Shown: positions 2,925-55,132, counted from the stretch's first letter. The stretch is DNA of 64,000 nt from a virus (IMGVR_UViG_3300031839_002042:1-64000); one strand, 5' to 3'. Numbers and translations: made by a program. Notes: a model not told the origin generated them from the letters alone.

Positions 2925-3449
2925 ATGCCAACAGGTAAAAGAAATGCAGCTAAAGCAGCTGCTAAAAATCAGGAAGAATTGGTGACTACAGCTGAAAATC
3001 AGGAAACAGAAGTAGCACCAGTACAAAAAGAAGAAGTAGCTATGTTCAATGCTGGAACATTGTTCATACCTAATTCTGAGTCTCTTGGAAGGCTTGAACA
3101 AGCTGAAACAGGAATGGATCTTACGGTGAAATATCGTAAGCAAGAAGAATGGTTTGAATTTAAAAACAAACCAGTTAGAGCTTATTTCATGGGGATCAAA
3201 GAAATCCCAAATGAGGAAGGGGAAATGATCATTGTTGGTGCATTCTTCACCAGTGATGGGCCATTTCTGGCAGGTCAAAAACTGCTAATTGATGCAGTAA
3301 AGCATTTGGAGCCTAATACACCTATTGAAATCACTTTCCTAGGTAAAAAGGAAAACAAGTCCTCAAAAGGGAGTACGAATATGTTTGAGGTGAAATTACT
3401 TCGCATCAACATTACTCCAAAACTGGAAGGAGGTAAGGCAAATGGATAA
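2925..3449 (+). CDS. hypothetical protein
   Basis: 174-aa ORF with 8-nt overlap to the next gene; the AAATCAATCATG start context matches several other genes. Confidence 0.5.
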   Translation: MPTGKRNAAKAAAKNQEELVTTAENQETEVAPVQKEEVAMFNAGTLFIPNSESLGRLEQAETGMDLTVKYRKQEEWFEFKNKPVRAYFMGIKEIPNEEGEMIIVGAFFTSDGPFLAGQKLLIDAVKHLEPNTPIEITFLGKKENKSSKGSTNMFEVKLLRINITPKLEGGKANG

Positions 3450-8992: not shown

Positions 8993-9874
8993 ATGGATGC
9001 TAAGAGAGTGATTAATACCAGGATGTGGGCAGATAGTTGGTTTGAAGAATTAAACAGCGCAGAGAGGCTTATTTGGCTTTATCTCCTGACCAATCAGCAA
9101 ACCAATCTTCTGGGTATTTATGAGATCAGCCTACGGAGAATCTCTAATGAAACAGGGGTTGATATTGATGTTTGCGAAACCATTATGGAACGGTTCGGGA
9201 ATGATTCGAAAGCCTTCTACAATGATGGGTATATCCTAATTGTGAACTGGATCAAGAATCAGCAGATGAATTCCAACATGATTATTTCAGCAAAAAAGAT
9301 TTTAGAGGCTTTACCAGAGAAAATAAAAAAGTGGCTTTTAAAGCTTGGAATCAGCGATTTTGAATCATTGGAGAATGGTTCGGTAACCATTGCCCAACGG
9401 TGGAAGGAAATTGAAATTGAAATTGAAAAGGAAATAGAAAATGAAATAGAAAGCGAAAATGGAAACGGTTCGCTTCCCGAACCGATAGCTATGGCTGTTT
9501 CTGAAGTTTCTTTTTTCAAACCCGATGGAAATGTCACCAAACAACCTGCCACTGAACAGCCAGATGAAAAAAAGAAAAAAGTTGCGCCAAAAAAGAAAAA
9601 TGAAATCCCGGAGCTTTCTGAGTTTCTAGACTATGCCAAATCGTGGATGGAAAGAAATGGGAAGGATTATGAGGGAAAGAGAGTGCAGATCGAGAGTAAA
9701 TACCAGGCTTGGAAGGATGCTGGCTGGAAAGATGGCTTTAACAAACCTATTTCAAACTGGAAATCAAAATTTCAAAATACAGAACCATTCATAAAATCAG
9801 ATGGAAAAAATTACCACACTACTAGAAAAACAGCTAGAGAACCCAACACTGGAAGTGGTTTTGGCAAACTGTAA
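8993..9874 (+). CDS. phage replication initiation / replisome-organizer protein
   Basis: N-terminus WADSWFEELNSAERLIWLYLL...LLGIYEISLRRISNETG resembles the phage replisome-organizer/DnaD-like N-domain; an EIEIEIEKEIENEIE linker follows. Confidence 0.55.
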   Translation: MDAKRVINTRMWADSWFEELNSAERLIWLYLLTNQQTNLLGIYEISLRRISNETGVDIDVCETIMERFGNDSKAFYNDGYILIVNWIKNQQMNSNMIISAKKILEALPEKIKKWLLKLGISDFESLENGSVTIAQRWKEIEIEIEKEIENEIESENGNGSLPEPIAMAVSEVSFFKPDGNVTKQPATEQPDEKKKKVAPKKKNEIPELSEFLDYAKSWMERNGKDYEGKRVQIESKYQAWKDAGWKDGFNKPISNWKSKFQNTEPFIKSDGKNYHTTRKTAREPNTGSGFGKL

Positions 9875-10622
9875 AGCTGAAGGGATCAAGGAGGAAGAAC
9901 TTGCGCTAGTACTTGATGATTACCTGAGAAAATACATTGGAAAGAAAAATTCAGAAGCTTATTGGGAGCGTATCAGACTACAATCACTGGAAGAACAGCC
10001 AGTACCGACTACCCAGCAGATGAAAGATCATTTCCTTAAAACCTATGAAAACCGATTCAAAAGAGAGTTTGTATTGGATGAATACTCGGAGCCATTGATC
10101 AACCTGCTTTGCATGTACTTCACAAACAGTCCAAACTTCGAAAGAACAGAGGAAAACTACAGTTTACACAAAGGGATATTACTCCATGGGGACGTAGGGA
10201 CAGGCAAATCATCTATCATGTCCTGTTTCCGGAAGAATCCAAAGCAGAGCTACAGGGTTATGCCTTGTCTGGATGTGGCAGTAGAGTTTTCAAAGAATGG
10301 ATATGAAGCTATGACACCATTTTCCAGAGGGGCCAAAAATCCAGCTGCTCGGGAATATTGGAATCAATCCTTTTTCTCCTGGTGCTTTGATGATCTTGGA
10401 GTTGATTCAGAGAAAAAGCATTTCGGCAATGAATCCAATGTAATGGCTGACTTGATTCAGATGGTGTATGATTCACGGAGGTTATCTGGAAAGGTGCATT
10501 TTACCACGAATCTTTCTGCAGATCAGATCAAAAATGTTTACGGTAGTAGAGTGGCTAGCAGGCTAAGGGAAATGGTCAACATTATAGAGTTTCCAAAAGG
10601 AAGCCCGGACAGAAGAAAATAA
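9801..10622 (+). CDS. DnaC/IstB-like AAA+ ATPase, helicase loader
   Basis: Walker A LLHGDVGTGKSS and Walker B CFDDLG; overlaps the 3' end of the previous gene by 74 nt. Confidence 0.7.
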   Translation: MEKITTLLEKQLENPTLEVVLANCKAEGIKEEELALVLDDYLRKYIGKKNSEAYWERIRLQSLEEQPVPTTQQMKDHFLKTYENRFKREFVLDEYSEPLINLLCMYFTNSPNFERTEENYSLHKGILLHGDVGTGKSSIMSCFRKNPKQSYRVMPCLDVAVEFSKNGYEAMTPFSRGAKNPAAREYWNQSFFSWCFDDLGVDSEKKHFGNESNVMADLIQMVYDSRRLSGKVHFTTNLSADQIKNVYGSRVASRLREMVNIIEFPKGSPDRRK

Positions 10623-10745: not shown

Positions 10746-11060
10746 ATGAGCGATTACCTTTCTAAAGTCCGTCAATTTTTCCTAAACAACCACCAGATCG
10801 AAGTATCATCTGAGGACTTAGATGAAATCAAAAAAATCATTCTTACAGGAAGCCAAGCTCAACTGCAGCAGATTGAAGAAGGATTATGTCAAAAGCAAAG
10901 GGAGAACTGTGCCAAATCAATCAGCGAGGCATTGGATAAGTATTATCATCCTGGAATGAGTCTAATGGAAATTCAAAAAATAGTGCAGAACGTAGCGTCT
11001 AATAGGGCCGAGACTCCTAACGTCACTGACACTGTAAGATTTTTAATAGTTGGCTCGTAG
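10746..11060 (+). CDS. hypothetical protein
   Basis: 104-aa ORF after a 120-bp AT-rich gap. Confidence 0.45.
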   Translation: MSDYLSKVRQFFLNNHQIEVSSEDLDEIKKIILTGSQAQLQQIEEGLCQKQRENCAKSISEALDKYYHPGMSLMEIQKIVQNVASNRAETPNVTDTVRFLIVGS

Positions 11061-11083
11061 CAATCAATCAAATCAATCAGGAA

Positions 11084-11308
11084 ATGGAAAAAACACTATC
11101 ACCAGCTGTGGAGAAATCCCGGTTAAAGCTCAGGATCGATTCAAAGATTCGGGAGATCAATCAAAAGATAAAGCATTTGGAACAGGATAAAGAGATCCTG
11201 GAATACGGATTAAGGAATCTAGAAGCAAATGAATTTGACTTATGGAAATGCAGCTTTGTTAAAAGCGATGTGATGAACTTAATCGGAAAGGAGGAATCCA
11301 ATGGGTAA
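11084..11308 (+). CDS. hypothetical coiled-coil protein
   Basis: 74 aa; CAATCAGGAAATG start context; ends in ...KEESNG, encoded by the SD of the next gene. Confidence 0.45.
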   Translation: MEKTLSPAVEKSRLKLRIDSKIREINQKIKHLEQDKEILEYGLRNLEANEFDLWKCSFVKSDVMNLIGKEESNG

Positions 11309-11537
11309 TCACGCTAACCATCCTTTATCTGAGGATTGGACTAAACCTGTGAATGATGTGGTGTCGATGCCAGACCATTTGGATCCATTATTCAATAAGC
11401 TAGGTATGCAACTTAGATTCCACACCATAACTGGAATAAGTGAGCAGGAAGCACTAATACGAATGGTTCGAATAGCTGAGGAATTCTTTCTGGATCCATC
11501 AAAAAAGAAAACAGGAAAGGAGGCTTCAAATGTCTGA
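11301..11537 (+). CDS. hypothetical protein
   Basis: 78 aa; AAGGAGG SD 6 nt upstream; ends ...KEASNV. Confidence 0.45.
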   Translation: MGNHANHPLSEDWTKPVNDVVSMPDHLDPLFNKLGMQLRFHTITGISEQEALIRMVRIAEEFFLDPSKKKTGKEASNV

Positions 11538-11685
11538 TTCCAAAAAATACACTATGCCATGGAGAGTAATTACTCCAGCAGGGTATATCTATGTAGAGTA
11601 CGCATCCGATTGTTTGGAGTATAAAAAAAACTACTGGTATGCGTATGGTAAAAATCCTGATTACAAAGGAGGTAGCAATGGATAA
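11530..11685 (+). CDS. small ORF (51 aa) not in the ORF track
   Basis: ATG at 11530 sits 6 nt after AAGGAGG, the ORF reads MSDSKKYTMPWRV...DYKGGSNG* and the stop overlaps the next SD/ATG, following the same junction pattern as its neighbours. Confidence 0.35.
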   Translation: MSDSKKYTMPWRVITPAGYIYVEYASDCLEYKKNYWYAYGKNPDYKGGSNG

Positions 11686-12136
11686 AGCACTAACAGTAAA
11701 AAACCCTTGGGCATGGCTAATTGCTCAAGGAATCAAGGATATTGAAAACCGTACTTGGAGAACTAACTTTAGAGGGAGGGTTTATATTCATGCAGCAGCC
11801 GTATGTGATCAAAGAGAAAGAACAATAAACAGATTATTTACTCCTGAACAAAGATTGGATTTAGATGCGAAAATGACTGATGAAATGATTCATGAATCAA
11901 GGTTATTTCCTATATCCCAAATCCTTTGCTCAGTAGAAATAATTGATTGTGTCATGGATCATTCCAGTATTTGGGCTGAAAAAGGCCGAGACGAACGAGA
12001 AAAGCAAATTTGGAACTGGGTTTTAGCCAATCCTCAGCCAGCACCGCAGTATGAGGGACTGAAGATCAAAGGAGCCCTTTCTTTCTGGGATGTGACAGAG
12101 GATAGAATAATCAGGGAGGAGGCATCAAATGGATGA
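11678..12136 (+). CDS. ASCH-domain protein (PUA-like fold)
   Basis: MDKALTVKNPWAWLIAQGIKDIENRTWRTNFRGRVYIHAA is a good ASCH N-terminal signature. ATG 11678 has an AAGGAGG SD; the track start 11639 is probably too early. Confidence 0.6.
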   Translation: MDKALTVKNPWAWLIAQGIKDIENRTWRTNFRGRVYIHAAAVCDQRERTINRLFTPEQRLDLDAKMTDEMIHESRLFPISQILCSVEIIDCVMDHSSIWAEKGRDEREKQIWNWVLANPQPAPQYEGLKIKGALSFWDVTEDRIIREEASNG

Positions 12137-12455
12137 TGTTTCAAAAAAAATAGAAGCAGTAAATAAGCTTGAAAAAGAGGTAAATGAATTGAGATATTAC
12201 TTACTCACAATTGACCCTATGAAGCAAGTTAAAAGGGGAATTGGTAATGATATAAACATAGTTCTTCAATGTGTGACAACTAAGAAATTTGCTATTTCTG
12301 CATCAAGGTGGATTGGGTTAGGGCATCATGAGTCAAAAATTGAAATACCTGATACTCTTTTGGAAAAATACTATTCAATTGCAAAAGATCATTTAAAAGA
12401 ACTTGAGCAAAAATTGGAAGAATTAGTAAATGGAAAGGAGGTATCAAATGTCTAA
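12129..12455 (+). CDS. hypothetical protein
   Basis: 108 aa; SD GGGAGGAGG upstream; ends ...KEVSNV. Confidence 0.45.
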   Translation: MDDVSKKIEAVNKLEKEVNELRYYLLTIDPMKQVKRGIGNDINIVLQCVTTKKFAISASRWIGLGHHESKIEIPDTLLEKYYSIAKDHLKELEQKLEELVNGKEVSNV

Positions 12456-13326
12456 AGACACAAAAATCCAATGGACAGATGTTACCTGGAACATTGCAGT
12501 AGGATGCACCAAGGTAGATGAGGATTGTAAGTACTGCTATATGTACCGTGGGAGTTTGAACAATACCCGATACGACCCAAAAGTAGTTAGGAAAACAAAG
12601 ACCGTTTTCAATCTGCCTCTAAAGATCAAGGAACCATCCAAGATATTTGTTTCTAGTCTGACAGATGTATTTCATCCAGAGTGCGACAGCTTCAGAAATG
12701 AAATGTGGGATATAATCAGAAAATGTCCTCAGCATACTTTCCAGATCCTCACCAAACGTCCAGAGAGGATCAGAGAACACCTACCAGCAGACTGGGGCGA
12801 TGGTTGGGATAATGTTTGGTTGGGTACCAGTGTAGGGAGTATGAAAGGTAGGCATCGAATTAATGAGCTGCTTATGGCTCCAAAAGCAAAGGTTAAATTT
12901 CTTTCATTAGAACCTCTTCATGAAAAGGTTTATTTAACAAGCATTAAGGAGTACTGTGATCCATGTTATTCATTTACAACTAACTCATTGACAGGTATAA
13001 CTTCAGAATGGGATGCAATGGGAAAAGGTGGAATTTATGACCATGGAAGTACACAAGGAGATAAAATAGACTGGGTGATAGTAGGCGGAGAATCTGGGAA
13101 TGAAAATGGGAAATACCAATATAGGCCATGTGAATTTGAGTGGATTGAATATGTCGTAAATGATTGTAAGTATGCCGGTGTTCCTGTATTCGTAAAGCAA
13201 CTAGGCACCCACTTAGCCAAGGAATTGAAGCTAAAAGACCGTCACGGTGGAGATATTACCGAGTGGCCAGAAAGTTTACAGATCAGGGAGTTTCCAGTAG
13301 AAAGGAAGGGGGTGGATTATGTGTAG
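12448..13326 (+). CDS. phage Gp37/Gp68-family protein (DUF5131)
   Basis: MSKDTKIQWTDVTWNIAVGCTKVDEDCKYCY matches the PF07505 N-terminus (IEWT..tWNp..GC...s.gC..CYA); ATG 12448 has an AAAGGAGG SD. Confidence 0.7.
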   Translation: MSKDTKIQWTDVTWNIAVGCTKVDEDCKYCYMYRGSLNNTRYDPKVVRKTKTVFNLPLKIKEPSKIFVSSLTDVFHPECDSFRNEMWDIIRKCPQHTFQILTKRPERIREHLPADWGDGWDNVWLGTSVGSMKGRHRINELLMAPKAKVKFLSLEPLHEKVYLTSIKEYCDPCYSFTTNSLTGITSEWDAMGKGGIYDHGSTQGDKIDWVIVGGESGNENGKYQYRPCEFEWIEYVVNDCKYAGVPVFVKQLGTHLAKELKLKDRHGGDITEWPESLQIREFPVERKGVDYV

Positions 13327-13618
13327 CACTAAATGGTACCAAATCCAACTTTTTAAAAAGGGTAAAATTGAGATTTTCCAGAATGTATTTCATCATAGGA
13401 CATCAGTTGAAGAAGGTGAAACATACATTGAAATTCATCATTCAAGAATTCATAATATAGGACTGAAAACCTTATCAACAAGGAAAATTAGTGATTGTTA
13501 TGACGTAAAAATTATCAATGAACCTGACTATGAGTTAAAGACTGAGTTTCCAAAGGATATAGAGATAGTCATTCATTCAACAAGAAGAAAGGAGGTTGAA
13601 AATGGCGGTTTACGTTGA
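13319..13618 (+). CDS. hypothetical protein
   Basis: 99-aa ORF; SD-like AGGAAGGGGG upstream. Confidence 0.4.
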   Translation: MCSTKWYQIQLFKKGKIEIFQNVFHHRTSVEEGETYIEIHHSRIHNIGLKTLSTRKISDCYDVKIINEPDYELKTEFPKDIEIVIHSTRRKEVENGGLR

Positions 13619-13883
13619 TGATATGTATAAGCTTTCAATTGGTCAATTCGGTAGAATGAAGATGTCTCACATGATTGCTGACAGTCATGAAGAACTTGTG
13701 GAAATGGCTGATAAGATTGGTGTACAAAGAAAGTGGATTCAATACAAAGGATTGCCAAATGAGCATTTTGATGTATCGATGTCGGCTCGAAAAAAAGCCG
13801 TTGAAAATGGAGCTATTGAAATTAGCTATCGTGAACTTGGGGAAATGGTTATGAAAAGAAGAAAGGAGGCCGATCATGGCTAA
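13602..13883 (+). CDS. DUF4031-family protein
   Basis: MAVYVDDM...GRMKMSHMIADSHEEL...NEHFD is characteristic of DUF4031. ATG 13602 follows AAAGGAGG; the track start is a TTG at 13596. Confidence 0.6.
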   Translation: MAVYVDDMYKLSIGQFGRMKMSHMIADSHEELVEMADKIGVQRKWIQYKGLPNEHFDVSMSARKKAVENGAIEISYRELGEMVMKRRKEADHG

Positions 13884-14157
13884 AGTATGGCGAAAAGAAC
13901 ATCCTTTCCCATGGATCTGCAATGATAGTGAGGATGATTTCAGGGCAGACATGGGAGAATATCTTCTAAGAGTTGAGCATATGGACACTGGACACTGGTG
14001 GTGGAGAGTTTATTACATGGAAGAAGCAATTCCAACTGAATTAAACGAACACGCAACCACTAGGGACAATGCAATCGGGAGGGCTGAAGGGGTTTATTTG
14101 GCCCATAAGCTGATGAACAATAAAAATGAAATCAGATTCTTTAAATCATCCATCTAA
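13876..14157 (+). CDS. hypothetical protein
   Basis: 93 aa; AAAGGAGG SD 6 nt upstream. Confidence 0.45.
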   Translation: MAKVWRKEHPFPWICNDSEDDFRADMGEYLLRVEHMDTGHWWWRVYYMEEAIPTELNEHATTRDNAIGRAEGVYLAHKLMNNKNEIRFFKSSI

Positions 14158-14486
14158 TGAGCAAACTAGAACAAGCGCTTGATATTTACGCAAAACTGAA
14201 ACAATGCCGTGATACTTTGTATAAATTCTTTACCGTGATCAAAAGCACTGGAGAGCAGGAATATCAAGAACGGATTGGATTGTTTCAATGTGTATTGGAT
14301 GGAGCAATCCATAAGCATGGTTTACCAGGTATTCTCCAAGCTGCAATCAAGTTGGGGAATGAAACAGAAGATGGAATGGAAATGATCAACATTTTTGCTG
14401 CAGCTTATGAGGACCAGTCAGGGAATGATTATCGGGAGTATTATTTGGAGAAAAGAAGAAAGGAGCGTGAAAGTGGCAATCCTTAA
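14157..14486 (+). CDS. hypothetical protein
   Basis: 109-aa ORF whose start overlaps the upstream stop (ATGA). Confidence 0.45.
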   Translation: MSKLEQALDIYAKLKQCRDTLYKFFTVIKSTGEQEYQERIGLFQCVLDGAIHKHGLPGILQAAIKLGNETEDGMEMINIFAAAYEDQSGNDYREYYLEKRRKERESGNP

Positions 14487-14898
14487 TTATACAACCAAGA
14501 TAGATCCTATCAAAACCATTGGAGAGATCCAGAAGATTCTGGTTTCCCATGGTGCCAGGAAGATTGTTTCTGATTATGATGATGATGGTACTCCATGTGG
14601 ATTGACTTTCCAATTGATTGTACGGGATCAGGTGACAGCTTATTCACTTCCGGCAAACTGGAAAGGAGTACTTAGGGCAATGGAAAAGCAAAAAGTAGCT
14701 AAATCACTTCAAAATAAAGATCAAGCCGTCCGTGTTTCGTGGAGAATTGTCAAAGATTGGGTTGAAGCCCAGATGGCTATTGTAGAATCAGAATTAGCAG
14801 GGATGGCAGAGGTATTCCTTCCCTACACGGTCATGAAAACCGGTAATACATTGTATCAGGAAATAGAATCGGGTTCACTTAATAAACTATTAGGATGA
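14473..14898 (+). CDS. hypothetical protein (GTG start)
   Basis: Track ORF 14395..14898; GTG 14473 (or 14467) lies 7 nt after AAGGAG, matching the neighbouring junction pattern. Confidence 0.4.
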   Translation: MAILNYTTKIDPIKTIGEIQKILVSHGARKIVSDYDDDGTPCGLTFQLIVRDQVTAYSLPANWKGVLRAMEKQKVAKSLQNKDQAVRVSWRIVKDWVEAQMAIVESELAGMAEVFLPYTVMKTGNTLYQEIESGSLNKLLG

Positions 14899-15287
14899 AA
14901 GTTACCAAAATATACGGTTGTGAGGGACGTGGTGACGGTGATGAAGCCTACCTAACCAGGTATACCCTTTTTGAAAACAACAGGGTTAAGATCTGCATCC
15001 ATGTTTTCCATCGATCCGACTCAGATGAATTGCATGATCATCCTTGGAACTTTGTCTCGTTGATCTTATGGCAGGGATATCGAGAGCAGACCCATGCAGG
15101 GAAATCAAGGAAGTGGCCATTGATGCTACTGTTTCGCAAAGCTGAGCATGCACATAGAGTGGAGCTTATCAATGGAAAGAAAGCGGTTACACTTGTGGTG
15201 ATGGGAAAAAGAATCCGGAAGTGGGGATTCTTCACCAAACAAGGCTGGTTGGACTGGAATACTTACTTTTACAATAACAGATGTTAA
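14895..15287 (+). CDS. hypothetical protein with an HxH...DHPW His-rich motif
   Basis: 130 aa; the His cluster IHVFHRSDSDELHDHPW suggests a metal-binding site; family not recognised. Confidence 0.45.
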   Translation: MKVTKIYGCEGRGDGDEAYLTRYTLFENNRVKICIHVFHRSDSDELHDHPWNFVSLILWQGYREQTHAGKSRKWPLMLLFRKAEHAHRVELINGKKAVTLVVMGKRIRKWGFFTKQGWLDWNTYFYNNRC

Positions 15288-15607
15288 ATATGAAAAACAA
15301 CGACAGAGAATCAATTGATTTAGCATTATTAATTATGGAAGGAATGGCTCCAGTTGTGAGTTGTCTTAATGGATTCATTATTCTTGCTCAAGACAATAAA
15401 GACTTCAAATCAAAATGCAAAAAAATTATTGAAGGAGATAACGTTGGCTTTTATTCAGTGACCAATCTGCTAAATGAATGGGATAGCTTTAAAAAAGCTA
15501 ATTATTGGGAAAGTGAAGCGATAGATGTTGATAAAATTCTAATAGAAAGATTTCAAAAAATCCTACAAAACCGTGAACGTGACGGGGAAAGGGAGGGGTA
15601 TCGCTGA
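15281..15607 (+). CDS. hypothetical protein
   Basis: 108-aa ORF, last gene of the + strand early block before a terminator. Confidence 0.4.
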   Translation: MLNMKNNDRESIDLALLIMEGMAPVVSCLNGFIILAQDNKDFKSKCKKIIEGDNVGFYSVTNLLNEWDSFKKANYWESEAIDVDKILIERFQKILQNRERDGEREGYR

Positions 15608-15776: not shown

Positions 15777-15812
15777 ATCCCCACCTGATTCAGATGGGGG
15801 TTTTGTTTTTTG
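15777..15812 (+). terminator. rho-independent terminator closing the early + strand block
   Basis: TCCCCACCTGA-tt-CAGATGGGGG hairpin (9-bp stem, one mismatch) followed by TTTTGTTTTTT. Confidence 0.6.
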
Positions 15813-15951: not shown

Positions 15952-16740
15952 TCAGCTAACATTGGTATGGTTGATTAGTCCGTGAATAAACTCCCTTCCT
16001 TTCTGTGTCCAAACAGTATGAATTGCAGTATGGGGTTTTCCATCGCTACCTGTATAAGTATGGGTTCTTGTTTTAGTGTAGCCCATAGATTGATATCGCT
16101 GATATAACAACCATGTACCACCTTGTTTGTAAATAACCTTCAAATCTCTCAACTTTCTATTGAGACTTACAGCGGACATTCCAAGTTCTTTAGCAATTAC
16201 ATTAATGGAAATGCAGTCCTCAGTAGCTAATACCTTTTCATAGTACTGCACTTTGGGTTGAACCTTGGTAATTACCTGTCCTTGTAGCTCAATAGTCTTT
16301 CTATTTCGGTCAGCTTCCTGTTCGGCCAGCTTTCTTTTTTCCCGTTCATCCTTTAAGCTCTGGGCCATTTGAATAATAAGATCCGGATTAGCTATCAACT
16401 CTTCTGTTTTGGCAGCAGTCAGATAACCTCCATGCTTACGGATAGAAGGAAGCACCTCAGAAGTAACCCATTTTTTGAATGCTTTCGCTTCTGGTTTGTT
16501 TGAGCGAAGCACCAAAGAGTAAAGACCAGATTCGTTAATAATAATTACTGATTGTTCCCCTCCAAGGGTGTAAACTTTATTTACATCCTTTTCATCTTCA
16601 TCTAAGGAAGATACAGCCATTCTTGGGTTTGAATGATTCAAAACATCACATACATCTTTAGCAACAAACCATGGTTCACCATCTTGGTCTATCACACGTA
16701 GTGAAGAACCGTTGAAATCAAAGGATTGGATATCAGACAT
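15952..16740 (-). CDS. phage antirepressor (Bro-N domain + KilA-C domain)
   Basis: MSDIQSFDFNGSSLRVIDQDGEPWFVAKDVCDVL...LDEDEK is a classical Bro-N motif. The C-terminus NVIAKELGMSAVSLNRKLRDLKVIY...GYTKT matches KilA-C. The start is taken at the internal Met. Confidence 0.8.
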   Translation of the reverse strand: MSDIQSFDFNGSSLRVIDQDGEPWFVAKDVCDVLNHSNPRMAVSSLDEDEKDVNKVYTLGGEQSVIIINESGLYSLVLRSNKPEAKAFKKWVTSEVLPSIRKHGGYLTAAKTEELIANPDLIIQMAQSLKDEREKRKLAEQEADRNRKTIELQGQVITKVQPKVQYYEKVLATEDCISINVIAKELGMSAVSLNRKLRDLKVIYKQGGTWLLYQRYQSMGYTKTRTHTYTGSDGKPHTAIHTVWTQKGREFIHGLINHTNVS

Positions 16741-17032
16741 GGCCCACCTCCATTCTATGAGCATTTTCAGCTGACTTGAAAAACTGTGATAACTGACGGT
16801 AGTGAAAAACCACCTTAGCCCGGTATTCTGATTCAGTGTTGTCTGAATCTTCTGAACCTACCCAGCTAAAGAATAAATCGTCTAAAATTTGACTTGTCTC
16901 TTTAAGGTCAACCTCCCGAGAAAGTGATGAAACAAGTTCTGCTTTTTTGTGTTGGCCGAAGATGGCGCTTTCTGAAGTAATCATAATAAAAGGATTTTTA
17001 GCATTTAGATGATCCGCATCCAACGGAGGCAC
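16733..17032 (-). CDS. hypothetical small protein upstream of the antirepressor
   Basis: 99-aa track ORF overlapping the antirepressor start by a few nt; weak. Confidence 0.3.
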   Translation of the reverse strand: MPPLDADHLNAKNPFIMITSESAIFGQHKKAELVSSLSREVDLKETSQILDDLFFSWVGSEDSDNTESEYRAKVVFHYRQLSQFFKSAENAHRMEVGHV

Positions 17033-18681: not shown

Positions 18682-18761
18682 GATTCCTGATTGTTTAGTT
18701 TAACCCCTATCCGTGGGTGATTCCTGATTGATTACCCAATATTAACTGATAGTTATATTAT

Positions 18762-24926: not shown

Positions 24927-27900
24927 ATGGAGCAAAACAATCCAGCAAACAATGATCTGCTTAAAAAAATCCGTGAAGCAAGGAAAGCAGCATCAAATCA
25001 GACCGACAAGGCAAGTTCAGATCTTAAAAATGCTACTCAAGATCCAGCTAAGAAATCAAATCCGCTTCTAAAGTTTGTTCAAAAACCACAAACTAACACT
25101 GCATTCACCCAGCCAGATACTTTTTCAAACCCTGTTCCACGAGAGCCACAAGCGGAACAGGGCTTTTCTACTCCTAGCCCATTGGTTAGTGATGGTTATC
25201 AAACCGTTACCAAACCATTGCCAAACCCTTCCAAACCATCCAATGTAAGAACACTGGATCAATTTAAGCCGTCTCTTCCTGTTTCAGAGATTCCAAGTCA
25301 AAACCCTACTTATAGAATACTTGGAGACCGTGATCTAAGCAGGGAAGAAACCATGCAGATGATTAGTCAGGCAAAATCAATGAAAGATCTGGAAAGGTTG
25401 CAAGTTGATAATGATCCTGAAGTAATGCAGGGATTTGAAAAAAGGATCAATGAGTTTAAAAATCAATCTTCTCAAACGCAGGTACCAGCCGAAAAACCTG
25501 TGATTGATAAACCTTGGTGGGAAGATACTTGGGATGGAATTAGATCCGGTACCAGATCGGCACTTTCTGCATTGTATGAAGGAGGTTCTGAAATAGCTGA
25601 TTATGTAGGAACTGGTGGACCAATGAACCCTAATTCTATTGGCCAATACAATATGATCAAGCAATTGCAAGCAAAAGGTTTGCGAGGTGCTGGATTAGGC
25701 GCAGGATTGAGAGAAATGGCCGACACAGAAAAGAAACGTGCGGATATCATCAACTCACAAGCAGACACTGAAAGTATAGGCTTCTTTGCAGGACAAATGA
25801 TGCCTTATGTTGCAGGAAGTGCTGCAGCAATTGCTTCGGCTCCAATTTCAGCACCATTGGCAGCAGGTTTGGGCACCGCAAACGTAGGTGCACTTGCTTT
25901 GGCTTCCGTTGGTTCTGGTTTGCAGACTTATGATCAATACAAGGCTGAAAAAGGTCAAGAAGTAGACCCTTATGCACGTCTGGGAGTTGGTCTTTTATAT
26001 GGCGGTGCAGAATTCGCCATGGAAAGGCTATCCCTGAATAAGTTGATGCCTAAGCAGTTCAAAGGAAAGGTAGCCTCAGCTATGTTCGGTGCTGTTCCTG
26101 GTGAAGTGATGGAGAAAGAGGCAAAACAACTGGTTGAAGAATTTGCTAATTCTAATTCCAGCAGAAAAGCAATGATAGATGGATTGCTTAAAGATACCGG
26201 GAAAGGTGTAATAGTAGAAGGATCCACCGAAGCAGCTACCGAAGTAGCCCAAGAATTCACCAATTGGTTGTATTACGAGAAAGAAGATAGAGGTAACTGG
26301 GAAGAACTTGCCAAAAATACCGCTACTGCATTTGCAGGAGGTGCATTGATGGGTGCAGGTTTAGGACCATTATCATATGGTTCTCAACGTTTGGTCAACA
26401 ACAAACGCAGGGAGCAAGCTGGTAAAGTTGTGATTGCACAGAATAGCAATACTGGTGAGGCAGTGGAGATTGTTGGAATATCCGGCCAGAAACCTAAGTC
26501 AGGTAAAAAATCCACAAGTTCCGGAAGTGTAGAAGGTACCGTTGGTTCATCATTAACCTATGATGTAATCCGTCCAAATGGCAGGGTTGCTCAATTAACC
26601 GAAGATGAAGTAGGTGAAGTGATAGAACTTCCTACAGATGTTTTCAAAGGTTTGCTTAACGGGAAAGTTGATGGTCAGTCTGCAGTAGAATCACGGTTGA
26701 ATCAAGAGATAGGCAGTGTAGCCCAGAACCAAGAAGAGGAATTTAAAGCCAAATACGAGCCATATACCTACAATGATCCTATCAATGGTCAGATGATCGC
26801 CATGGGTAAAAGAAATGGAGTTCCTGTTTATATCAAAACACAGACTCCAAACGGATTTCTCATTGTAGATGAAGAAGGTGTAGAAACTTTGGTGCCTCAG
26901 CAAGCATTAACAGAAGTTACACAGATGCCATTCGGTGCATTCCTGGAAACAAATGCTCCTGTTTCTCCTGAAACAGCACCTCCTTTTGATCCTACCAACC
27001 CGATTCAAGTAGGAGAACCAATAAATTATCAAGATGAAAACTGGATAGTGACTGGAATTGATATGGATTCAGGCACAATTCAACTTGAATCAGAGGATTC
27101 AGACGGAATTTTTGAAACTGTTCCAGTTGACTTGCTTCAGCAGTTGAGAAAACCAAAAGAAGAATTGCTTCAAGAATCAACCATGGACTTGGATAGTACT
27201 GGAGCAGGAAAACTCAGAAATATTTTTTCTACTGGTGATCAGGTAAAACTTGAAACCAAAGAATCAAAACTATCCGATTCAAGTCCATTCATGATTCAAG
27301 AAACATTGGACAATGTAGCTTCAAAGCTTGGTATTCCAGCTTTTAAAGCAGGTTCTGTTCATTTTTCTAAAGCGGAAGCTGAATCAAGGAAATGGCTTGT
27401 AGAAAACCTTGGTGAAAAAGGCGATGAAATTGCTGATATCATGGAGTTTCCTCAAGCAGCGAACAGATTAATCGACAGGATTATTCAGACAAAGAAAGTT
27501 GATTCAAAAAGCAATAATTCACAAACCACAACCATAAATGAGCCAATACAGCAAACCGAACCGCAGCAACAAACAGGACAAATTGATGTCCAAGAGGAAA
27601 AAAACCAAGAAAACAGCACCGAAGCATCCGAAGGACAAAAAGGGCTGGAAGGATCAGGAATAAACCAGAATGAAATTGATCGAATAAATTCTGAAAGCCA
27701 ATGGGAAGATGTTAAAACAGCATCAACCAGCGAGGATCTAGCAGAATTGTATGATGTGGAAGTCCAAAACTTGGAAGGTATTAACCCGATCGATAATGCT
27801 ATTGCACAGGTAATAGGTAAAGTCAACCCTGAATCATACGCTAGGTTTGGTGATAGGAACAATATTTCCAAAGGAAGTGCCGGTAATTGGATTTCTAAGA

Positions 27901-39900: not shown

Positions 39901-40184
39901 TTTATAAATCTGATGGAGATACAGCTTCGGCCAGAGCTTTACTTCAAGAAGAACGAGCTAAGTTTTTGATGATTGATGTAGCAAAATTGGTAAACGGTAA
40001 GTTGAAGAAAATCAATGATCAAATTGGTGCAATCAAAGAACGTGATGCTCCTGGAGATAATGAGAAGATAGAAAAGCTGTATGATCAAAGAAATCAGTTG
40101 ATGAATAAATTCAACACCTTGTATTATCAGCGTGTAACTCCTAAAAAAGAAGCACCAACAACATTGGAAGCATTATTCAAATAA
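24927..40184 (+). CDS. giant 5085-aa polyvalent protein, DarB-like anti-restriction / ejection protein candidate
   Basis: Uninterrupted 15,258-nt ORF. The MTase motifs are VLDPSSGIGNYFG (aa ~2194) and ISNIPFG (~2259). The SNF2 motifs are GAGKT (~2865), DESQ (~3029), LSGTPISN (~3081) and LIGSTETMGTGVNVQ...QRNGRGLRQGN (~3340-3380). LHEIIGH lies at ~3824 and an H-G-T / G-x-G-I-Y / E triad at ~3996-4041. Gly/Ala-rich hydrophobic stretches lie at both ends. A hairpin+T6 terminator follows. Confidence 0.85.
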   Translation: MEQNNPANNDLLKKIREARKAASNQTDKASSDLKNATQDPAKKSNPLLKFVQKPQTNTAFTQPDTFSNPVPREPQAEQGFSTPSPLVSDGYQTVTKPLPNPSKPSNVRTLDQFKPSLPVSEIPSQNPTYRILGDRDLSREETMQMISQAKSMKDLERLQVDNDPEVMQGFEKRINEFKNQSSQTQVPAEKPVIDKPWWEDTWDGIRSGTRSALSALYEGGSEIADYVGTGGPMNPNSIGQYNMIKQLQAKGLRGAGLGAGLREMADTEKKRADIINSQADTESIGFFAGQMMPYVAGSAAAIASAPISAPLAAGLGTANVGALALASVGSGLQTYDQYKAEKGQEVDPYARLGVGLLYGGAEFAMERLSLNKLMPKQFKGKVASAMFGAVPGEVMEKEAKQLVEEFANSNSSRKAMIDGLLKDTGKGVIVEGSTEAATEVAQEFTNWLYYEKEDRGNWEELAKNTATAFAGGALMGAGLGPLSYGSQRLVNNKRREQAGKVVIAQNSNTGEAVEIVGISGQKPKSGKKSTSSGSVEGTVGSSLTYDVIRPNGRVAQLTEDEVGEVIELPTDVFKGLLNGKVDGQSAVESRLNQEIGSVAQNQEEEFKAKYEPYTYNDPINGQMIAMGKRNGVPVYIKTQTPNGFLIVDEEGVETLVPQQALTEVTQMPFGAFLETNAPVSPETAPPFDPTNPIQVGEPINYQDENWIVTGIDMDSGTIQLESEDSDGIFETVPVDLLQQLRKPKEELLQESTMDLDSTGAGKLRNIFSTGDQVKLETKESKLSDSSPFMIQETLDNVASKLGIPAFKAGSVHFSKAEAESRKWLVENLGEKGDEIADIMEFPQAANRLIDRIIQTKKVDSKSNNSQTTTINEPIQQTEPQQQTGQIDVQEEKNQENSTEASEGQKGLEGSGINQNEIDRINSESQWEDVKTASTSEDLAELYDVEVQNLEGINPIDNAIAQVIGKVNPESYARFGDRNNISKGSAGNWISKKGTGKQIDLIAQEASDFYGGDNSVSTQDVIDFMEKFTSAENITQPSGNPKLKEISDKYFALTGKKLNKSKAAKIRKELKGKSISKNDKGELLESDDQIADYLSNNPSIGEFLSNEFSNEDGSLNYEEALKILDTDPDWFTVFPGGFKENEVNSIRTILTNKLNEQSGNQGTNSAVSPASEADGGNQSRNDLPEAENKVDQTGSGVVDSREQQKPDSTDPQPTGEPKSRGRKSSRSNPSSSTVKLDEKAQKLTDELKDLWGQFGAGDKLRSGVSGQDFELAGKIIAKSAELGLVKFEQIINWVGENLGQETLRQKFDSFKAAYAAQLIFNNPQNEDLNAISKKKADDFIVEEKSEQTLFEEEVSSYVDGYYTDKNGLERKIKGVKFYQDETNRILLRLEKGNIILNGKEIRDAIDNTGDGPKFSNTKSEQSEPEVKSVKNETDRPTRKDILNDSSNPFVKKFKGLSYDQVEKWRIANKQPEGKTADQFWKYYFALQAEHQYQTLKSRNPQFTENHKAKAKVNGKEVELTYTIGISDRRPIEERTMFSAVNFSASNLDHIQKGLHIQGYINNLPNWDGPQTLEEAFRRMIEQRAKESSKKIIPVTIDDFRITGPNEESVPETTPILDNSGLVQLDLFGNPINVKNAKPGKSTKNIQTLEDQEKSSRSKVETIKDRKSATKQLKVVDDLLSEIENELKLAGYYNAGDLADKNEYPHYEHEKVFKKDLVKFSKALAKELGWEHRTDKKGKPIYAQTNIAPAGGDGDFTLFDPNSNQGVYISVNVSPDYESPSDNDPLIIDGKTRNWGGSGGDNAFLWRYATKEQPYGDGQNRWADSKTSVAEFKKKILDQLPSASPATKPTSLTEMIEAGEGRIMVVKPTPDKVEQPESTSKKEESSSEKVELDPDWNQSVSKAAAAIKKLGLTIPKSKAESMFDPDLRLKQLVDFVNSYLNDTFGNENPITDGKQGSGSNGQVRPTSGQSTKREQTSTVRPNEGNRNSQEISSGEAGGNESTDGQTEGTGLRPDNSRGTGKRKTDGDSGNERVNDSEIDGFGKADQSKLEKKTKQRKKNEANFSIPEGFSYPDTFKVAERFDANIKAIELVVEMIKENRNESTPEEKQVLFGYSGFGGIPDIARNPNYTYERFDSDAMRSRVKKVYDLINEIDPDGKLGVLSSLKSSINTAHYTEPEIIRAHYDLISKMGFQSGKVLDPSSGIGNYFGSMPVPMSQDAILTGVEMDYLTSEIFRRMYPGSKAINKPLQDANIVEGTFDLAISNIPFGSTKIYDPSWKGKKQPIYRIAQQKIHNYFVVKMIESAKEGGLISILTSNAVMDTESNRPIRQYMADNTYFIGAVRLPNTAFKGASGTKVVTDILFLQKRKAGESVSQQNPFVESSTQTKDGSKYSLNEYFISNPQNILGEIVGGGQYDAETGYTVEGSAENLRSKIVAALEKSAVTINYSPANDIELAKDGRQTEAYSGKDTIRSGNVFEKNEDFYEAVERNSNGEFTGEKINVFKKYVEPFRDFISIRQSLNELIDNERFGQPDSVLDPLRKKLKSSYNKFNNNHGRLNEYKNVFSADIDSFQVLALEVLDEKGKFKGLADIFEKRTINPNIRPTSADNPQEAILISLNEYNKINPARMQELLGENWLEQSKGLLFELPNGTYESRDQYLSGDIWEKIQQVKDNPAFKENLTELEKVLPKPIPFELISIPLGARYVDIDVYNEFIKDTFNTRAKIAYLEGLDSYKMSFTIHSDEYSTSRINTNEVIEKAFSDQTIRINNTIRHSDGSTTTEFNPVETAAANAVVDKLKTAWKTWLAGKQDIGNKIAETYNRLFNSTVKRRFDGSHMTFPGLRGITPRTHQADGINMLVQNNGGIIDHVVGAGKTLIMVIGSMELKRLGVAKKPLIIGKKSTVPQIYEAFQKAYPGAKVLAPTDKDFTASKRKKILSQIAVNDWDAIILTHENYGNILPDPETAVQVMQEEIDLLKLTVEEMRGMEKSQMTRKEIKGMEKRIDNLTAKIKELSDLNKDTEIMDFGKLGIDHIMVDESQSFKNLTYSTVHNNVAGLGTKDGAKKTYNLLMGVRHLQKIHKGDKGTTFLSGTPISNTMAELYLILKYLRPNKLRELGISTFDAWAKTFAEKSSELEFGVSGALKAKERFRRFINVPELAKLYTDIADVRNDSNLKLPKPGIKGGKEDFVLIKPSRNLEKFYKKLIHYATSGDGSVMNIEGLDYSSEEAKKAKMLKITDLATKASIDLRLVYPQAPFDPNSKLANVAADIASVYKETAKHKGVALAFMDSGKTSQYNPLFNGEREIKRILIDIYGVKPDEIQLMADHQTDAKKEKLFKKVNKGEVRVLIGSTETMGTGVNVQERVLAMRHVDIPWRPSDYEQRNGRGLRQGNIIAEDFYNNEVDVKVYGVERSLDAYKFELLAIKQHFIDQIKNGATSDRIMDEGEGDEDNGASFSEFMAAATGNPIIKEKAKNDKLLDQLNTSRIAFANRQGRARAMIERYNKGIANAESVISQLELYNSIAQKTKINEDYQLLVGGKPYEKVGEAGDALLDMRPYSEQAIELMKKGGQNLTPQATANGWDLYVFDKKMIDGTPFKNYIIAVTDPETGKRYYPKSGELAQGSVYVANTLKKYVNSIENQILDNQSYIKDEATKYIEQSKKVLEEKWPDEEKYQKALADQSRIAAEVAVMNEQEGKKNAEDSDVSSPMFSDDDPNPSPDKPTFFKKPNSLSEMMDRASMRATINPVEKPASTKQVEQWANEISKNWETKPEIKVFDNASQVIKSFPELEEYKSEIAEVPGMMIRNPRTGATQVVLIASHSYLNNKEGVDITLLHEIIGHYGLREGLRQRAKGNEAEYIKKYQDLMDVIFEAKKNDPMMSDIASRYFGRKIDALTKIQQTTVADEYIAHLAQTGIKDTFTDRIISKFRELLRSIGIDLKFNDSDLLNLIGNSRRFVEGKRKVNGNITDGVKFIKVKQDQTQTPAFKAWFGNSKVVDENGEPKIMYHGTNNEFTEFKISTKGALGAGIYLTPYKEDALKHGKIAMPVYVKIENPKIVNNREEDTQLLGSSLIYRRKKGIETFDGVIDQYGQMLALDPTQIKSANGNNGDFDGTNPDIRFMKVSDGSMPTPVRKATEEVAKKSWSELATERLQDHMVMSKKLINEKTAGKDPVKDKADFYTKENLSKGRALVQSENFVNKYWNPFLETAKQIVKETGLKQSDISDYLKAKHHGERKKYFIDKERESFTAMQNAKYMFSPELQVEYSPLEWADKIDADFEKKIKKYDATWPTGMTDEWADETVSNFESTVAEKQVKTLNKQVKAMSVFVNKKRFTSGMISKTVYNELMTQYQNYVPLRDWAGLEGMNENVYSPLMSAKGRTSEAADPIPFLFTAAQEAIMRGENNLVRQSLLEFVKEHVSPGDYFIRSAWYVKTGEQDEFGNDIWKETQNKPTQAQIDSGDAMRSFDPDVHRSVQQQGERKNVLPVLVKGKKVFIEFKNSEIPMAMKNLNQEQVPGWLSPIRSYTRWLSSMYTQYSPEFGFRNLIRDMGFAGFNISTERGLKTAAKTYSQVAKSMKTLTQFFWNEGEYPTGKDGNYLKEYMEEGAMTGYSDLKEVKEIFETAKREIDGLNAKGWQGVKSKVGSGFETALKPIDVYNRTFENAMRFAYYKTLREDGVSKQQSAIAAKDLTVNFNRKGTWSAGLGSIYIFFNASVQGTQTLLSKFAKPETRKKAYGFAGSIMALGMIQSIILGLSSDDDDDGKTYYEKIPDYIRRNNIIIPLPKQGEYMKIPLPYGLNVFYAMGESLGRVITGQGKPGMEALGVASVASNAFSPLGGYDFTSDNQRPFQGVAQLFTPSALQPVTDLMLNQNFAGFPIYRENFTPTQYKRPDSQMYFEGVNPAIRTVTDALNSATGGDQVKSGLIDINPEWIEYGFEQYFGGPVQFGQNAYATLAAIAGGENILKDPYYRKVPLLRSFMQKSGTEYQIKQDYYTNYNEIQAAKQAYELYKSDGDTASARALLQEERAKFLMIDVAKLVNGKLKKINDQIGAIKERDAPGDNEKIEKLYDQRNQLMNKFNTLYYQRVTPKKEAPTTLEALFK

Positions 40185-40586: not shown

Positions 40587-40627
40587 CCCACAGCCTTGCG
40601 TAAATGCGCAGGGATGTGGGTTTTTTT
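40587..40627 (+). terminator. terminator-like hairpin + T7 immediately upstream of the portal-like gene
   Basis: CCCACAgccttgcgtaaatgcgcagggaTGTGGG then TTTTTTT. The track N-terminus MRRDVGFF of ORF 40604 is this hairpin read as codons. Confidence 0.5.
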
Positions 40628-40639
40628 ATTTATACCCTC

Positions 40640-45304: not shown

Positions 45305-45661
45305 TTATTTTTTATTTCTTCTAATCTGATCTCCAGGAATGATCTGAAAATTCACCCTGTCACCTACTTGAAATGCACCAGGATATTCCACTATCCAAAC
45401 AGACCTTGCATTTATTCCTCCTGGGTTGATCGGGATGATTTTATAGAACACAAAGCCTTCGGACCATTTGTATTCCAGTGTTTTCATTTCTGAAACAGCC
45501 CAGATTGTAGGTTCCTCAGGAATATTCATGTTGCGCTTTGCTACGCAACCAAAAAAGGCCATTACCATAAATGAGATCACCACAATCATGACGATTAGCG
45601 TTCTCACTAAGTATTTCAAACCTTCTTTGAAAATATCTTCGAATGGATCTTCAGCTGACAT
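45305..45661 (-). CDS. membrane protein
   Basis: 118 aa with one TM helix (LIVMIVVISFMVMAFF). Confidence 0.45.
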   Translation of the reverse strand: MSAEDPFEDIFKEGLKYLVRTLIVMIVVISFMVMAFFGCVAKRNMNIPEEPTIWAVSEMKTLEYKWSEGFVFYKIIPINPGGINARSVWIVEYPGAFQVGDRVNFQIIPGDQIRRNKK

Positions 45662-46052
45662 GATTCGCCTCCTTTCTATTCATTTCCAACTTGTTTTTAT
45701 CGACCACTAATCCTTGATCGATATATTCATCTCCAAAAATCCAGAAGTGATGTTTTACCAGTTCTTGGTAATAGTGATACCTCAGATTACCAGATAGCAA
45801 TCCTTGGATATTTGATGCCGAAAACAATGGATTCCAACCAAATTGATCTCCAAGTGATTTTTCACTGCCTTCTGGAATATAATAATGAAGCCATGCAAGC
45901 CTATAGCAAACGGGTTTACCATTACCTTTTTCGATAGCTCTTATATGTGTTACAGATTGAAGAGGTAATAACTCACGATATGAAGTATCAATTAATAAAC
46001 CAGTGTTTAGGTAAAGTTTTAATTGATCAAAAGTGATTTTCAACTCAGGCAT
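45651..46052 (-). CDS. hypothetical protein
   Basis: 133 aa; SD-like GAGGAGG upstream. Confidence 0.45.
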   Translation of the reverse strand: MPELKITFDQLKLYLNTGLLIDTSYRELLPLQSVTHIRAIEKGNGKPVCYRLAWLHYYIPEGSEKSLGDQFGWNPLFSASNIQGLLSGNLRYHYYQELVKHHFWIFGDEYIDQGLVVDKNKLEMNRKEANHVS

Positions 46053-46431
46053 TTTTAACCTCCTCTCTAGTTACTTCCAGATGCGACACTTTTAAAAGTT
46101 CCTCAAAATTGACATGAGGATTAAACAAGATGGTACCATCCACTTTGAAACCTTCCATAATCTCATGCTTTACTGCAGCTTCAAAAGCACAATAGGCAGT
46201 TTTGATTACTTCATCATCCGTCATACCTTCAGACAGGTACCATTTACGGCCTTTCCATAGCATTTTTTCACCTGTATGGGTACATGGAGAAAAGTACTCA
46301 CATTGGATATAAAGCCTTCCATTGTTGTGCGCCTGGTCTGACTTTACCACAAACTGGAAATTACACCCGAGCAATCCTGCTGAAACTCTGTTCAGAAGAT
46401 TGATTACTTTTTGTTTTTTTGAGATTAGCAT
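46045..46431 (-). CDS. hypothetical protein
   Basis: Start moved to the internal Met MLISKKQ, whose ATG is fused to the CAATCAGGA motif. Confidence 0.4.
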   Translation of the reverse strand: MLISKKQKVINLLNRVSAGLLGCNFQFVVKSDQAHNNGRLYIQCEYFSPCTHTGEKMLWKGRKWYLSEGMTDDEVIKTAYCAFEAAVKHEIMEGFKVDGTILFNPHVNFEELLKVSHLEVTREEVKNA

Positions 46432-46510
46432 TCCTGATTGATTTGATTGATTCCTAAAATTTGCCACTGTTGGTAGGCACTGGCGACCGTCCTTTATCAA
46501 AAGCTCCTAG

Positions 46511-47104: not shown

Positions 47105-47239
47105 ATTATTTCCTGATTGTTTGATTGATTGGATGTAAATCTAAAGTCAAAAAATTAAAATGCAATATTTTTCTTAATTTATTTTCCATAATACGTTGCA
47201 AAATACATTTTAAAACTATCTTAGTGCAACGAAAAGTGA

Positions 47240-52399: not shown

Positions 52400-52554
52400 C
52401 AACATAATGAAAAAATTTTGCAATATCTTTGTGTAGTTACTGCAAAAGAGTAATTTAGAGCCTGACATAAAAAGCCAAGCAAAACAGCGGCTATTTCGAA
52501 AACCAAAAATGGGATTCGGGATAGCCGCTTTTTCATTTTAAACACAAATCAATC

Positions 52555-55067: not shown

Positions 55068-55132
55068 TCTTATACGGTAGGCTGGTTTCAGCCTACCGTT
55101 ATTTTCAATTCACACTTATAACCAAATCAATC

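Follow-up and report, generated by a model that had tools for sequence, protein, structure and literature searches.

Why should a stretch of viral DNA in which most genes lack a Shine-Dalgarno (SD) site carry a run of genes that start behind nearly perfect ones? The question is raised by a block at 11.3-14.5 kb of the viral sequence IMGVR_UViG_3300031839_002042:1-64000 (the window, i.e., the whole 64,000-nt stretch analyzed), which is part of a 98-kb JGI metagenome contig and has identical pieces in two other samples. The textbook example of ribosomes that retain the anti-SD of 16S rRNA yet conceal it is found in Bacteroidia. The sequence-only reading of the window, made before the present analysis, proposed that the block was acquired horizontally from an SD-using lineage or exploits a distinct translation mode. 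The window is a prophage with two kinds of start signal: G-poor, A-rich leaders, the mode of its host, and extended SDs at gene overlaps of at least 8 nt. The block is the densest stretch of this prophage-wide rule, not foreign DNA.

When all starts in the block are scored, a strong SD precedes nine of ten consecutive genes, from 11301 to 14473, with predicted pairing energies of -9 to -13 kcal/mol against a 9-nt anti-SD. Six of these starts have a perfect AAGGAGG followed by a 5-6-nt spacer and ATG (11301, 11530, 11678, 12448, 13602 and 13876), three have variants (12129, GGGAGGAGG; 13319, GGAAGGGGGTGG; and 14473, AAGGAGcg with a GTG start) and one, 14157, has no SD. The run of about 12 consecutive perfect sites described earlier is therefore real as a run of strong SDs, but shorter and less uniform. 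The recurring conserved junction is likewise present, although not at every start: an exact AGGAGGnnTCAAATG is found at 11530, 12129 and 12448, with a near copy at 11301, and a second sub-type, AAGAAGAAAGGAGG, at 13602, 13876 and 14473. A repeat finder, run independently, ranked the junction first among direct-repeat families of the region, with two sub-types, TAATCGGAAAGGAGGnnTCMAATG and AAGAAGAAAGGAGGnnGAnnATG. The near-identical tails of the upstream proteins are also there (GKEESNG, GKEASNV, YKGGSNG, REEASNG, GKEVSNV, RKEADHG and others). The features of the chain to which the block belongs, in order, are:

11061..11308 (+): chain entry, G-poor leader AATCAATCAAATCAATCAGGAA and first open reading frame (ORF), 11084-11308 (74 aa), the sole chain gene with a host-type SD-less leader
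11286..11308 (+): junction 1, GAAAGGAGG, AAGGAGG 11288-11294, ATG 11301, upstream stop TAA 11306-11308; overlap 8 nt, tail GKEESNG
11515..11537 (+): junction 2, GAAAGGAGG, AAGGAGG 11517-11523, ATG 11530, stop TGA 11535-11537; overlap 8 nt, opens a 51-aa ORF, 11530-11685
11665..11685 (+): junction 3, AAAGGAGGT, ATG 11678 (ASCH-domain gene, 11678-12136), stop TAA 11683-11685; overlap 8 nt
12114..12136 (+): junction 4, GGGAGGAGG, ATG 12129 (orphan gene, 108 aa), stop TGA 12134-12136; overlap 8 nt
12433..12455 (+): junction 5, GAAAGGAGGT, ATG 12448 (DUF5131 gene, 12448-13326), stop TAA 12453-12455; overlap 8 nt
13299..13326 (+): junction 6, variant SD AGAAAGGAAGGGGGTGG, ATG 13319 (99 aa), stop TAG 13324-13326; overlap 8 nt
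13586..13618 (+): junction 7, AGAAAGGAGGT, ATG 13602 (DUF4031 gene, 13602-13883), stop TGA 13616-13618; overlap 17 nt
13860..13883 (+): junction 8, AGAAAGGAGG, ATG 13876 (93 aa), stop TAA 13881-13883; overlap 8 nt
14155..14159 (+): contrast junction, TAATG, start 14157, SD-less; overlap 1 nt
14457..14486 (+): junction 9, AGAAAGGAG, GTG 14473 (141 aa), stop TAA 14484-14486; overlap 14 nt, MAIL N-terminus matching homologues
14895..15607 (+): end of the gap-free chain, starts 14895 (ATGA, -4) and 15281 (-7), both SD-less

The chain spans 11084-15607 and comprises 14 ORFs with zero intergenic gaps; its overlaps are 8, 8, 8, 8, 8, 8, 17, 8, 1, 14, 4 and 7 nt, with 4 nt at the last junction (14895). 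Between the chain end (15607) and a convergent antirepressor gene (15952-16740) lies a GC-rich, terminator-like hairpin (15779-15799) with T/A runs on both sides, likely a bidirectional terminator that closes the operon. Scans for Bacteroidota promoter motifs and for sigma-70 promoters and terminators returned nothing that bears on the SD finding.

Could such a run arise by chance, or because SDs guided the choice of starts? For a few genes the start is indeed ambiguous (12430 versus 12448, 11639 versus 11678), but a start rule blind to SDs still finds strong SDs at eight of nine overlaps of 8 nt, and five starts (11678, 12448, 13602, 13876 and 14473) are supported by the N-termini of homologues. 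Internal in-frame ATGs are preceded by a strong SD in 1.6% of cases; because this decoy rate gives a probability of ~3e-14 for at least nine strong-SD starts in ten, a chance run is excluded. Among sense-strand AAGGAGG 7-mers in the window, 8 of 17 sit 5-7 nt before a gene start. The probability left to chance or artefact is negligible, and the block shows a strong enrichment of SD strength.

Public gene calls made on identical DNA conflict at 11530, 11678 and 12448: the annotation of one contig has the 51-aa ORF and a 152-aa ASCH gene, and the other a 43-aa truncation, a 165-aa ASCH gene and a 298-aa DUF5131 gene. Gene finders are apparently inconsistent on such junctions in an otherwise SD-less genome. 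The 51-aa ORF (11530-11685), reported earlier as hidden and unannotated, is plausible, with an SD and an 8-nt overlap at both ends and a positive coding score, but is present in full in one of the public gene calls. Neither version of the DUF5131 product, from one start or the other, had an exact match on record.

What sets the marked starts apart from the others? With every start in the window scored, 13 have a strong SD, four of them outside the block, and all 13 lie within the 3' end of the co-directional gene before them. The overlap is 8 nt (ATGnnTRA, hereafter -8) at ten and 11, 14 or 17 nt (phase-1) at the other three. In a class count over the window, strong SDs were assigned to 9/10 starts at -8 overlaps, 3/7 at overlaps of -11 or longer, 1/9 at -4, 0/2 at -1 and 2/44 at intergenic or divergent starts (Fisher p = 3e-7 for SD versus overlap class). 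Both intergenic matches (47775 and 6349) are of the GGGGG type and depend on G·U pairs; in the curated start list 47775 is omitted and 6295 is used in place of 6349. Starts that are free-standing or at -4/-1 overlaps have G-poor, A-rich leaders. The earlier statement that genes elsewhere in the window lack SDs holds for free-standing starts, but equally strong SDs occur at four sites on both strands:

3427..3449 (+): AAGGAGGT, ATG 3442 (472 aa, DUF3799/PDDEXK), stop TAA 3447-3449; overlap 8 nt
16733..16751 (-): GGAGGTG, ATG 16740 (Bro-N/KilAC antirepressor); overlap 8 nt with gene 16733-16984
45651..45677 (-): AGAAAGGAGG, ATG 45661; overlap 11 nt with gene 45651-46052
46045..46064 (-): AGGAGGT, ATG 46052; overlap 8 nt with gene 46045-46431

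The gene at 46045-46431 (-) itself has a AATCAATCAAATCAATCAGGA leader, and every SD gene is preceded either by a gene with its own A-rich leader or by another SD-coupled gene. The -8 overlaps are themselves enriched in the window, where they stand to -4 overlaps as 10:9, compared with 22:139 in SD-poor viral loci (p = 2.5e-4). The SD is kept though the upstream gene reads it in different frames (K-E-x, K-G-G, E-G-G), as at junction 3, where a different frame yields the tail YKGGSNG; selection thus acts on the nucleotides, not on the peptide. Mean local minimum free energies are -7.9 kcal/mol at SD junctions, -4.3 at -4/-1 overlaps, -3.4 at intergenic starts and -9.1 in the coding background. 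The SD junctions are without the A-rich, low-structure context of other starts, although the SD itself could still serve ribosomes that lack bS21. Occlusion of the SD by local structure was considered as a coupling device and rejected, as the junctions fold no more strongly than the coding background.

Two further observations concern start contexts. A G-poor leader built of AATC/AAATC units (e.g., AATCAATCAAATCAATCAGGAA) recurs directly before free-standing start codons, at 2170-2193, 2908-2924, 11061-11083, 18682-18700(-), 46432-46455(-), 47105-47125(-), 52540-52554 and 55118-55132; related Cyclobacteriaceae prophages (L113, L114 and L212) have AAATCTAAAATC versions, and the leader may be a lineage-specific, SD-independent translation enhancer. 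At the junction of a C5-cytosine DNA methylase gene (47775-49889, +) with an N6/N4 methylase gene (49886-50662, +), which overlap by 4 nt, a G-run, GGGGGGTAATGATAGCATGA, scores as a weak SD through G-U pairs; in the prophage of a Cyclobacterium metagenome-assembled genome (MAG; L113) the gene after a 57%-identical methylase overlaps it by 4 nt and has a genuine AGAAAGGAGGT.

Was the block imported? Because ordinary chromosomal genes adjoin the Bacteroidota-type tyrosine integrase (Arm-DNA-bind_5, Phage_int_SAM_5) with which the window opens, the window is an integrated prophage. These genes lie directly past the integrase (locus L193, 11676-20444; GC 39.6%) and encode a GIY-YIG protein, an 848-aa lipoprotein-like ORF, a LON substrate-binding domain protein, GAPDH, a trypsin-like protease and a monomeric isocitrate dehydrogenase. 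All six host-side starts beside the prophage are SD-less, which speaks against a host that routinely uses strong SDs. There is no tRNA beside the integrase, scans of the window for Rfam families and tRNAs found none, and a search with the integrase matched only Bacteroidales plasmids. Public copies of the prophage from three samples are 100% identical, with no within-lineage variation. The best genomic matches of the block-associated proteins, at 57-74% aa identity, are in prophages of the Cyclobacterium MAG and of Mongoliibacter ruber DSM 27929, and the host probably belongs to the Cyclobacteriaceae (Cytophagales), judging from these protein matches.

A donor phage infecting SD-using bacteria (e.g., Firmicutes or Proteobacteria) would account for the canonical AAGGAGG, typical of SD-using lineages, and for the 86-nt, 76% DNA match of the DUF4031 gene to Pseudomonas phages, which is the only match of block DNA among 50,697 phage records. 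By composition, however, the block is indistinguishable from the rest of the phage and has no island signature: GC is 0.386 versus 0.389, GC at third codon positions 0.336 versus 0.339, the codon-usage distance is smaller than that of 72% of same-size control runs and the 4-mer content is mid-range (rank 15/34). SD-less contigs and prophages of Cyclobacteriaceae contain the nearest homologues (55-74% aa), whereas searches against cultured-phage proteins gave only distant matches in Actinobacteria phages, to the 141-aa and DUF5131 proteins, at 31-40%. Among DUF5131 homologues in IMG/VR, the 29 closest (47-69% aa) have A-rich leaders without an SD in every case, so the DUF5131 gene was not imported together with its SD; the two at the far end (32%) carry TAAGGAGGT. 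IMG/VR scans with the orphan protein of 12129-12455, the protein of 9801-10622 and the capsid protein found no relatives. Given also that the same SD module is present at four other sites on both strands and that different genes carry it in relatives, horizontal acquisition, the favored proposal of the sequence-only reading, is not supported and has a very small residual probability.

The virion genes include those for an SU10-type capsid protein and a P22-like portal. The portal has relatives in only three cultured phages, all Bacteroides temperate phages with the same layout, in which a giant ORF precedes the portal gene. Here the ORF (24927-40184, +) is a single 5085-aa 'polyvalent protein' directly upstream of the portal gene (40604-42679), with Eco57I-type methylase, ResIII/SNF2/Helicase_C, ART-PolyVal ADP-ribosyltransferase and LPD38 domains; in Bacteroides phage BS-TP4 this place is taken by an ORF of 5391 aa. 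The ORF before the capsid gene (52555-53625, +) has a long Glu/Asp run and is scaffold-like, and collagen-like G-x-x repeats (GPAGADGxDG) mark a probable tail fiber protein at 60536-62197 (+).

Does the rule extend beyond this prophage? The Mongoliibacter ruber prophage (NZ_PVTR01000001.1, about 275-296 kb), resident in a cultured lysogen and with almost no genes in common with the window, has SDs at 4/5 -8 junctions and at two further starts, while its free-standing starts are SD-less; in contig L212, SDs are found at 5/5 -8 starts versus 0/9 intergenic ones. A scan of IMG/VR for the junction pattern returned 120 loci, 16 of them SD-poor. After removal of the ascertained junction, these 16 have strong SDs at 8/13 starts at -8, 6/21 at -11 or longer, 2/23 at -4, 1/10 at -1 and 4/165 intergenic or divergent starts. 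The effect is weaker in an unbiased set of 40 SD-poor viral loci (-8, 4/22; -4, 9/139; intergenic or divergent, 15/525), so that the habit of placing SDs at -8 overlaps is strong in some phage lineages but not universal. Bacteroides phage BS-TP4 (L315, PQ571277.1, 1-50000) has strong SDs at 0/25 intergenic or divergent starts and at 1/8 overlapping ones (-13: ATAGGAGGAACTTTAATATG); one further SD, at a -4 overlap, is borderline. This faintly echoes the overlap rule in Bacteroidales phages. A bound for host chromosomes comes from the table of Huber et al., in which strong SDs mark 1.8-3.0% of all overlapping pairs versus 0.13-0.41% of leading genes in three Cyclobacteriaceae genomes; published counts for three genomes of the family place SDs at 1.4-3.5% of leading genes.

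In two orthologous families with 29-47% protein identity, the two covered by the comparison, the SD and the -8 overlap are kept behind unrelated upstream genes, as in the L244 orthologue of the 13876 gene; the junction therefore belongs to the downstream gene. The same observation would fit a junction of 25-38 nt that serves mainly as a recombination or microhomology site for shuffling small accessory genes, with an incidental or secondary SD, and so would the first place of the junction among the region's direct-repeat families, with two sub-types, and the high mosaicism of these phages. Yet perfect identity between copies extends over at most ~16 nt, with 63-88% overall, which is too short for homologous exchange; the conserved core is an exact complement of the 16S tail, correctly spaced from the start codon, which a linker would not need; and if the SD is part of the downstream gene, the two would travel together in any case. 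A role mainly as a cassette linker is quite improbable.

What, then, do SDs do at overlaps? Their confinement to overlaps of at least 8 nt argues for coupling rather than free initiation, and it is at this point that the earlier suggestion of a distinct translation mode fits the data, with coupling itself something that we infer. Our preferred reading, to which we assign a probability of about 0.55, is SD-assisted termination-reinitiation that relays ribosomes through the gap-free 14-gene chain. The SD would act in cis on the ribosome that finishes the upstream ORF. With the upstream stop codon in the A site, the SD would trail the P site by ~8 nt, close enough for the 16S 3' tail to reach, as judged by inspection of the geometry; after peptide release, pairing would hold the ribosome on the mRNA and shift it back to the AUG, ~2 nt upstream in the case of an 8-nt overlap. 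A single loading event at 11084 could thus be relayed down all 14 ORFs (11084-15607), and the look-alike C-terminal tails would be a by-product of the SD being read as codons. A kinetic block on access to the anti-SD could plausibly be overcome in cis, with the SD threaded past the platform. This scheme presumes that the host anti-SD pairs with these SDs and that downstream translation depends on upstream translation. Translational coupling between overlapping genes is common, and reinitiation is less efficient in the -8 than in the -4/-1 configuration (PMC10666635). The junctions are within the spacing expected for coupling (about -8 to +6 nt) at the ten 8-nt overlaps, with the three others longer (11, 14 and 17 nt). 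A frameshift at the junctions was considered and dropped: the downstream frame is +1, but on inspection the P-site codons are not slippery.

Several observations weigh against the relay. Huber et al. found that Bacteroidetes as a whole use the SD neither for initiation nor for reinitiation (PMC6728339). In Flavobacterium johnsoniae, the anti-SD appears to be sequestered in elongating ribosomes as well, and prfB frameshifting does not normally involve SD pairing (PMC10798248). The -8 junction at 2498 in the window carries no more than AGGA, and in the unbiased viral set 18/22 -8 overlaps have no SD, so a -8 junction can exist without one. The assignment of the host family, finally, is based on three phage proteins with 57-74% identity.

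The length of the SDs bears on a different mechanism. A Bacteroidota-type 16S tail, ACCUCCUUUCU, and the 'perfect SD', AGAAAGGAGGU, were taken from PMC7797042 in place of the host's own 16S, no 16S gene that could confirm the host tail being present in the retrieved loci. Against the 13-nt tail ACACCUCCUUUCU, the prophage SDs have 9-12 paired positions and energies of -13.5 to -19.7 kcal/mol; contiguous matches to AGAAAGGAGGTGT number 6-11, and the spacers to the start codon are 4-7 nt in 12/13 cases and 12 nt at the variant 13319. The window sequence at 13586-13596, AGAAAGGAGGT, is identical to the published 'perfect SD' oligonucleotide of the Flavobacterium ribosome-binding work. Jha et al. 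found that the F. johnsoniae 30S subunit binds AGAAAGGAGGU with an on-rate 11-fold slower than that of the E. coli 30S (PMC7797042). According to McNutt et al., pairing of such strength is characteristic of rpsU in Bacteroidia (PMC9976891), and all 13-nt-tail energies lie below -13 kcal/mol, the rpsU-type strength; since they were computed with ViennaRNA duplexfold, not free_scan, comparison with the published threshold is approximate. The location is not of the rpsU type, as the sites lie inside prophage coding sequence and not in an rpsU/rpsR 5' leader.

These values raise the possibility of a specialized-ribosome regulon, in which free ribosomes devoid of bS21 are drawn to the extended SDs, as happens at host rpsU, and translation of the accessory genes is gated by bS21 status (e.g., during stress, ribosome assembly or infection) with no need for coupling. 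At rpsU, the 13-bp helix sterically expels bS21 (PMC13000457), and reporters with strong SDs are translated better by bS21-less ribosomes (PMC9976891); pairing over 9-12 nt at -13.5 to -19.7 kcal/mol is in the rpsU range. Such recruitment leaves unexplained, however, why the SDs are restricted to overlaps of at least 8 nt and almost never found at the 44 free-standing starts, and the window yielded neither a bS21 homologue nor any other obvious modifier of the ribosome. We regard it as the less likely of two mechanisms that may coexist, in the form of coupling by bS21-free ribosomes, with perhaps one chance in several of being the explanation by itself.

A bolder version of the relay, which is tentative and on balance unlikely, would make the junction a portable 'stop-restart' module (extended SD, 4-7 nt, ATG, NNT, RA) that evolved in temperate phages of Cytophagales and other Bacteroidota, where a threaded ribosome frees the sequestered anti-SD, possibly expelling bS21 as at rpsU. 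If so, long chains of accessory genes would be translated by a mode rare in host genes, and the SD-blindness of Bacteroidia would reside in the kinetics of free subunits and would not apply to terminating ribosomes.

Whichever mechanism operates, the natural clients of a freed anti-SD studied so far are essentially one, rpsU. Thirteen near-perfect SDs, found only at sites that a ribosome reaches from translation of the gene before, provide natural substrates for asking whether terminating ribosomes use the anti-SD, and other SD-poor phages with the same pattern supply more. Gene callers trained on SD-less models misplace starts at junctions of this kind, and finding an SD motif in a phage of Bacteroidota is no reason to assume a foreign host. 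In the library of papers searched, no description was found of a clustering of SDs at -8 overlaps, either in Bacteroidota or in phages of this phylum.

How does the pattern compare with known systems? Repeated boundary elements such as the T4 promoter-early stem-loops mediate gene shuffling in phages. Like these, the prophage junction is a short repeat at the 5' edge of small accessory genes whose neighbors vary between phages; unlike these, it has no promoter or stem-loop, its repeats are much shorter and its core is an SD plus a start codon. At the +1 frameshift site of Bacteroidia prfB (PMC10798248), as in the prophage, a conserved SD inside coding sequence near a stop codon is met by a translating ribosome in an SD-blind lineage. 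The spacer to the P site, however, is 3 nt at prfB and ~8 nt at termination in the prophage, where the P-site codons are not slippery and the proposed outcome is new initiation, not frameshifting. The extended SD of Bacteroidia rpsU (PMC9976891, PMC13000457, PMC13000453) shares near-complete complementarity to the 16S tail (AGAAAGGAGGT) and a setting in which other genes are SD-less, but lies in the rpsU 5' untranslated region and forms a 13-bp helix, whereas the prophage has 13 copies inside coding sequence at gene overlaps, with 9-12 paired positions. In Haloarchaea, the SD is used for reinitiation only (PMC6728339, PMC10666635): as in the prophage, it is absent or non-functional at free-standing starts and present in the 3' end of the upstream gene, and a chain of overlaps implies coupling. 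By contrast, the phylum of the prophage host is the one group that was found in those studies to use the SD for neither purpose, and the prophage SDs are unusually long and placed at overlaps of at least 8 nt, not at the common -4/-1, with coupling that we here infer. The prophage pattern matches the haloarchaeal habit and shares the extended SD of rpsU, yet by their defining contexts it is a member of neither.

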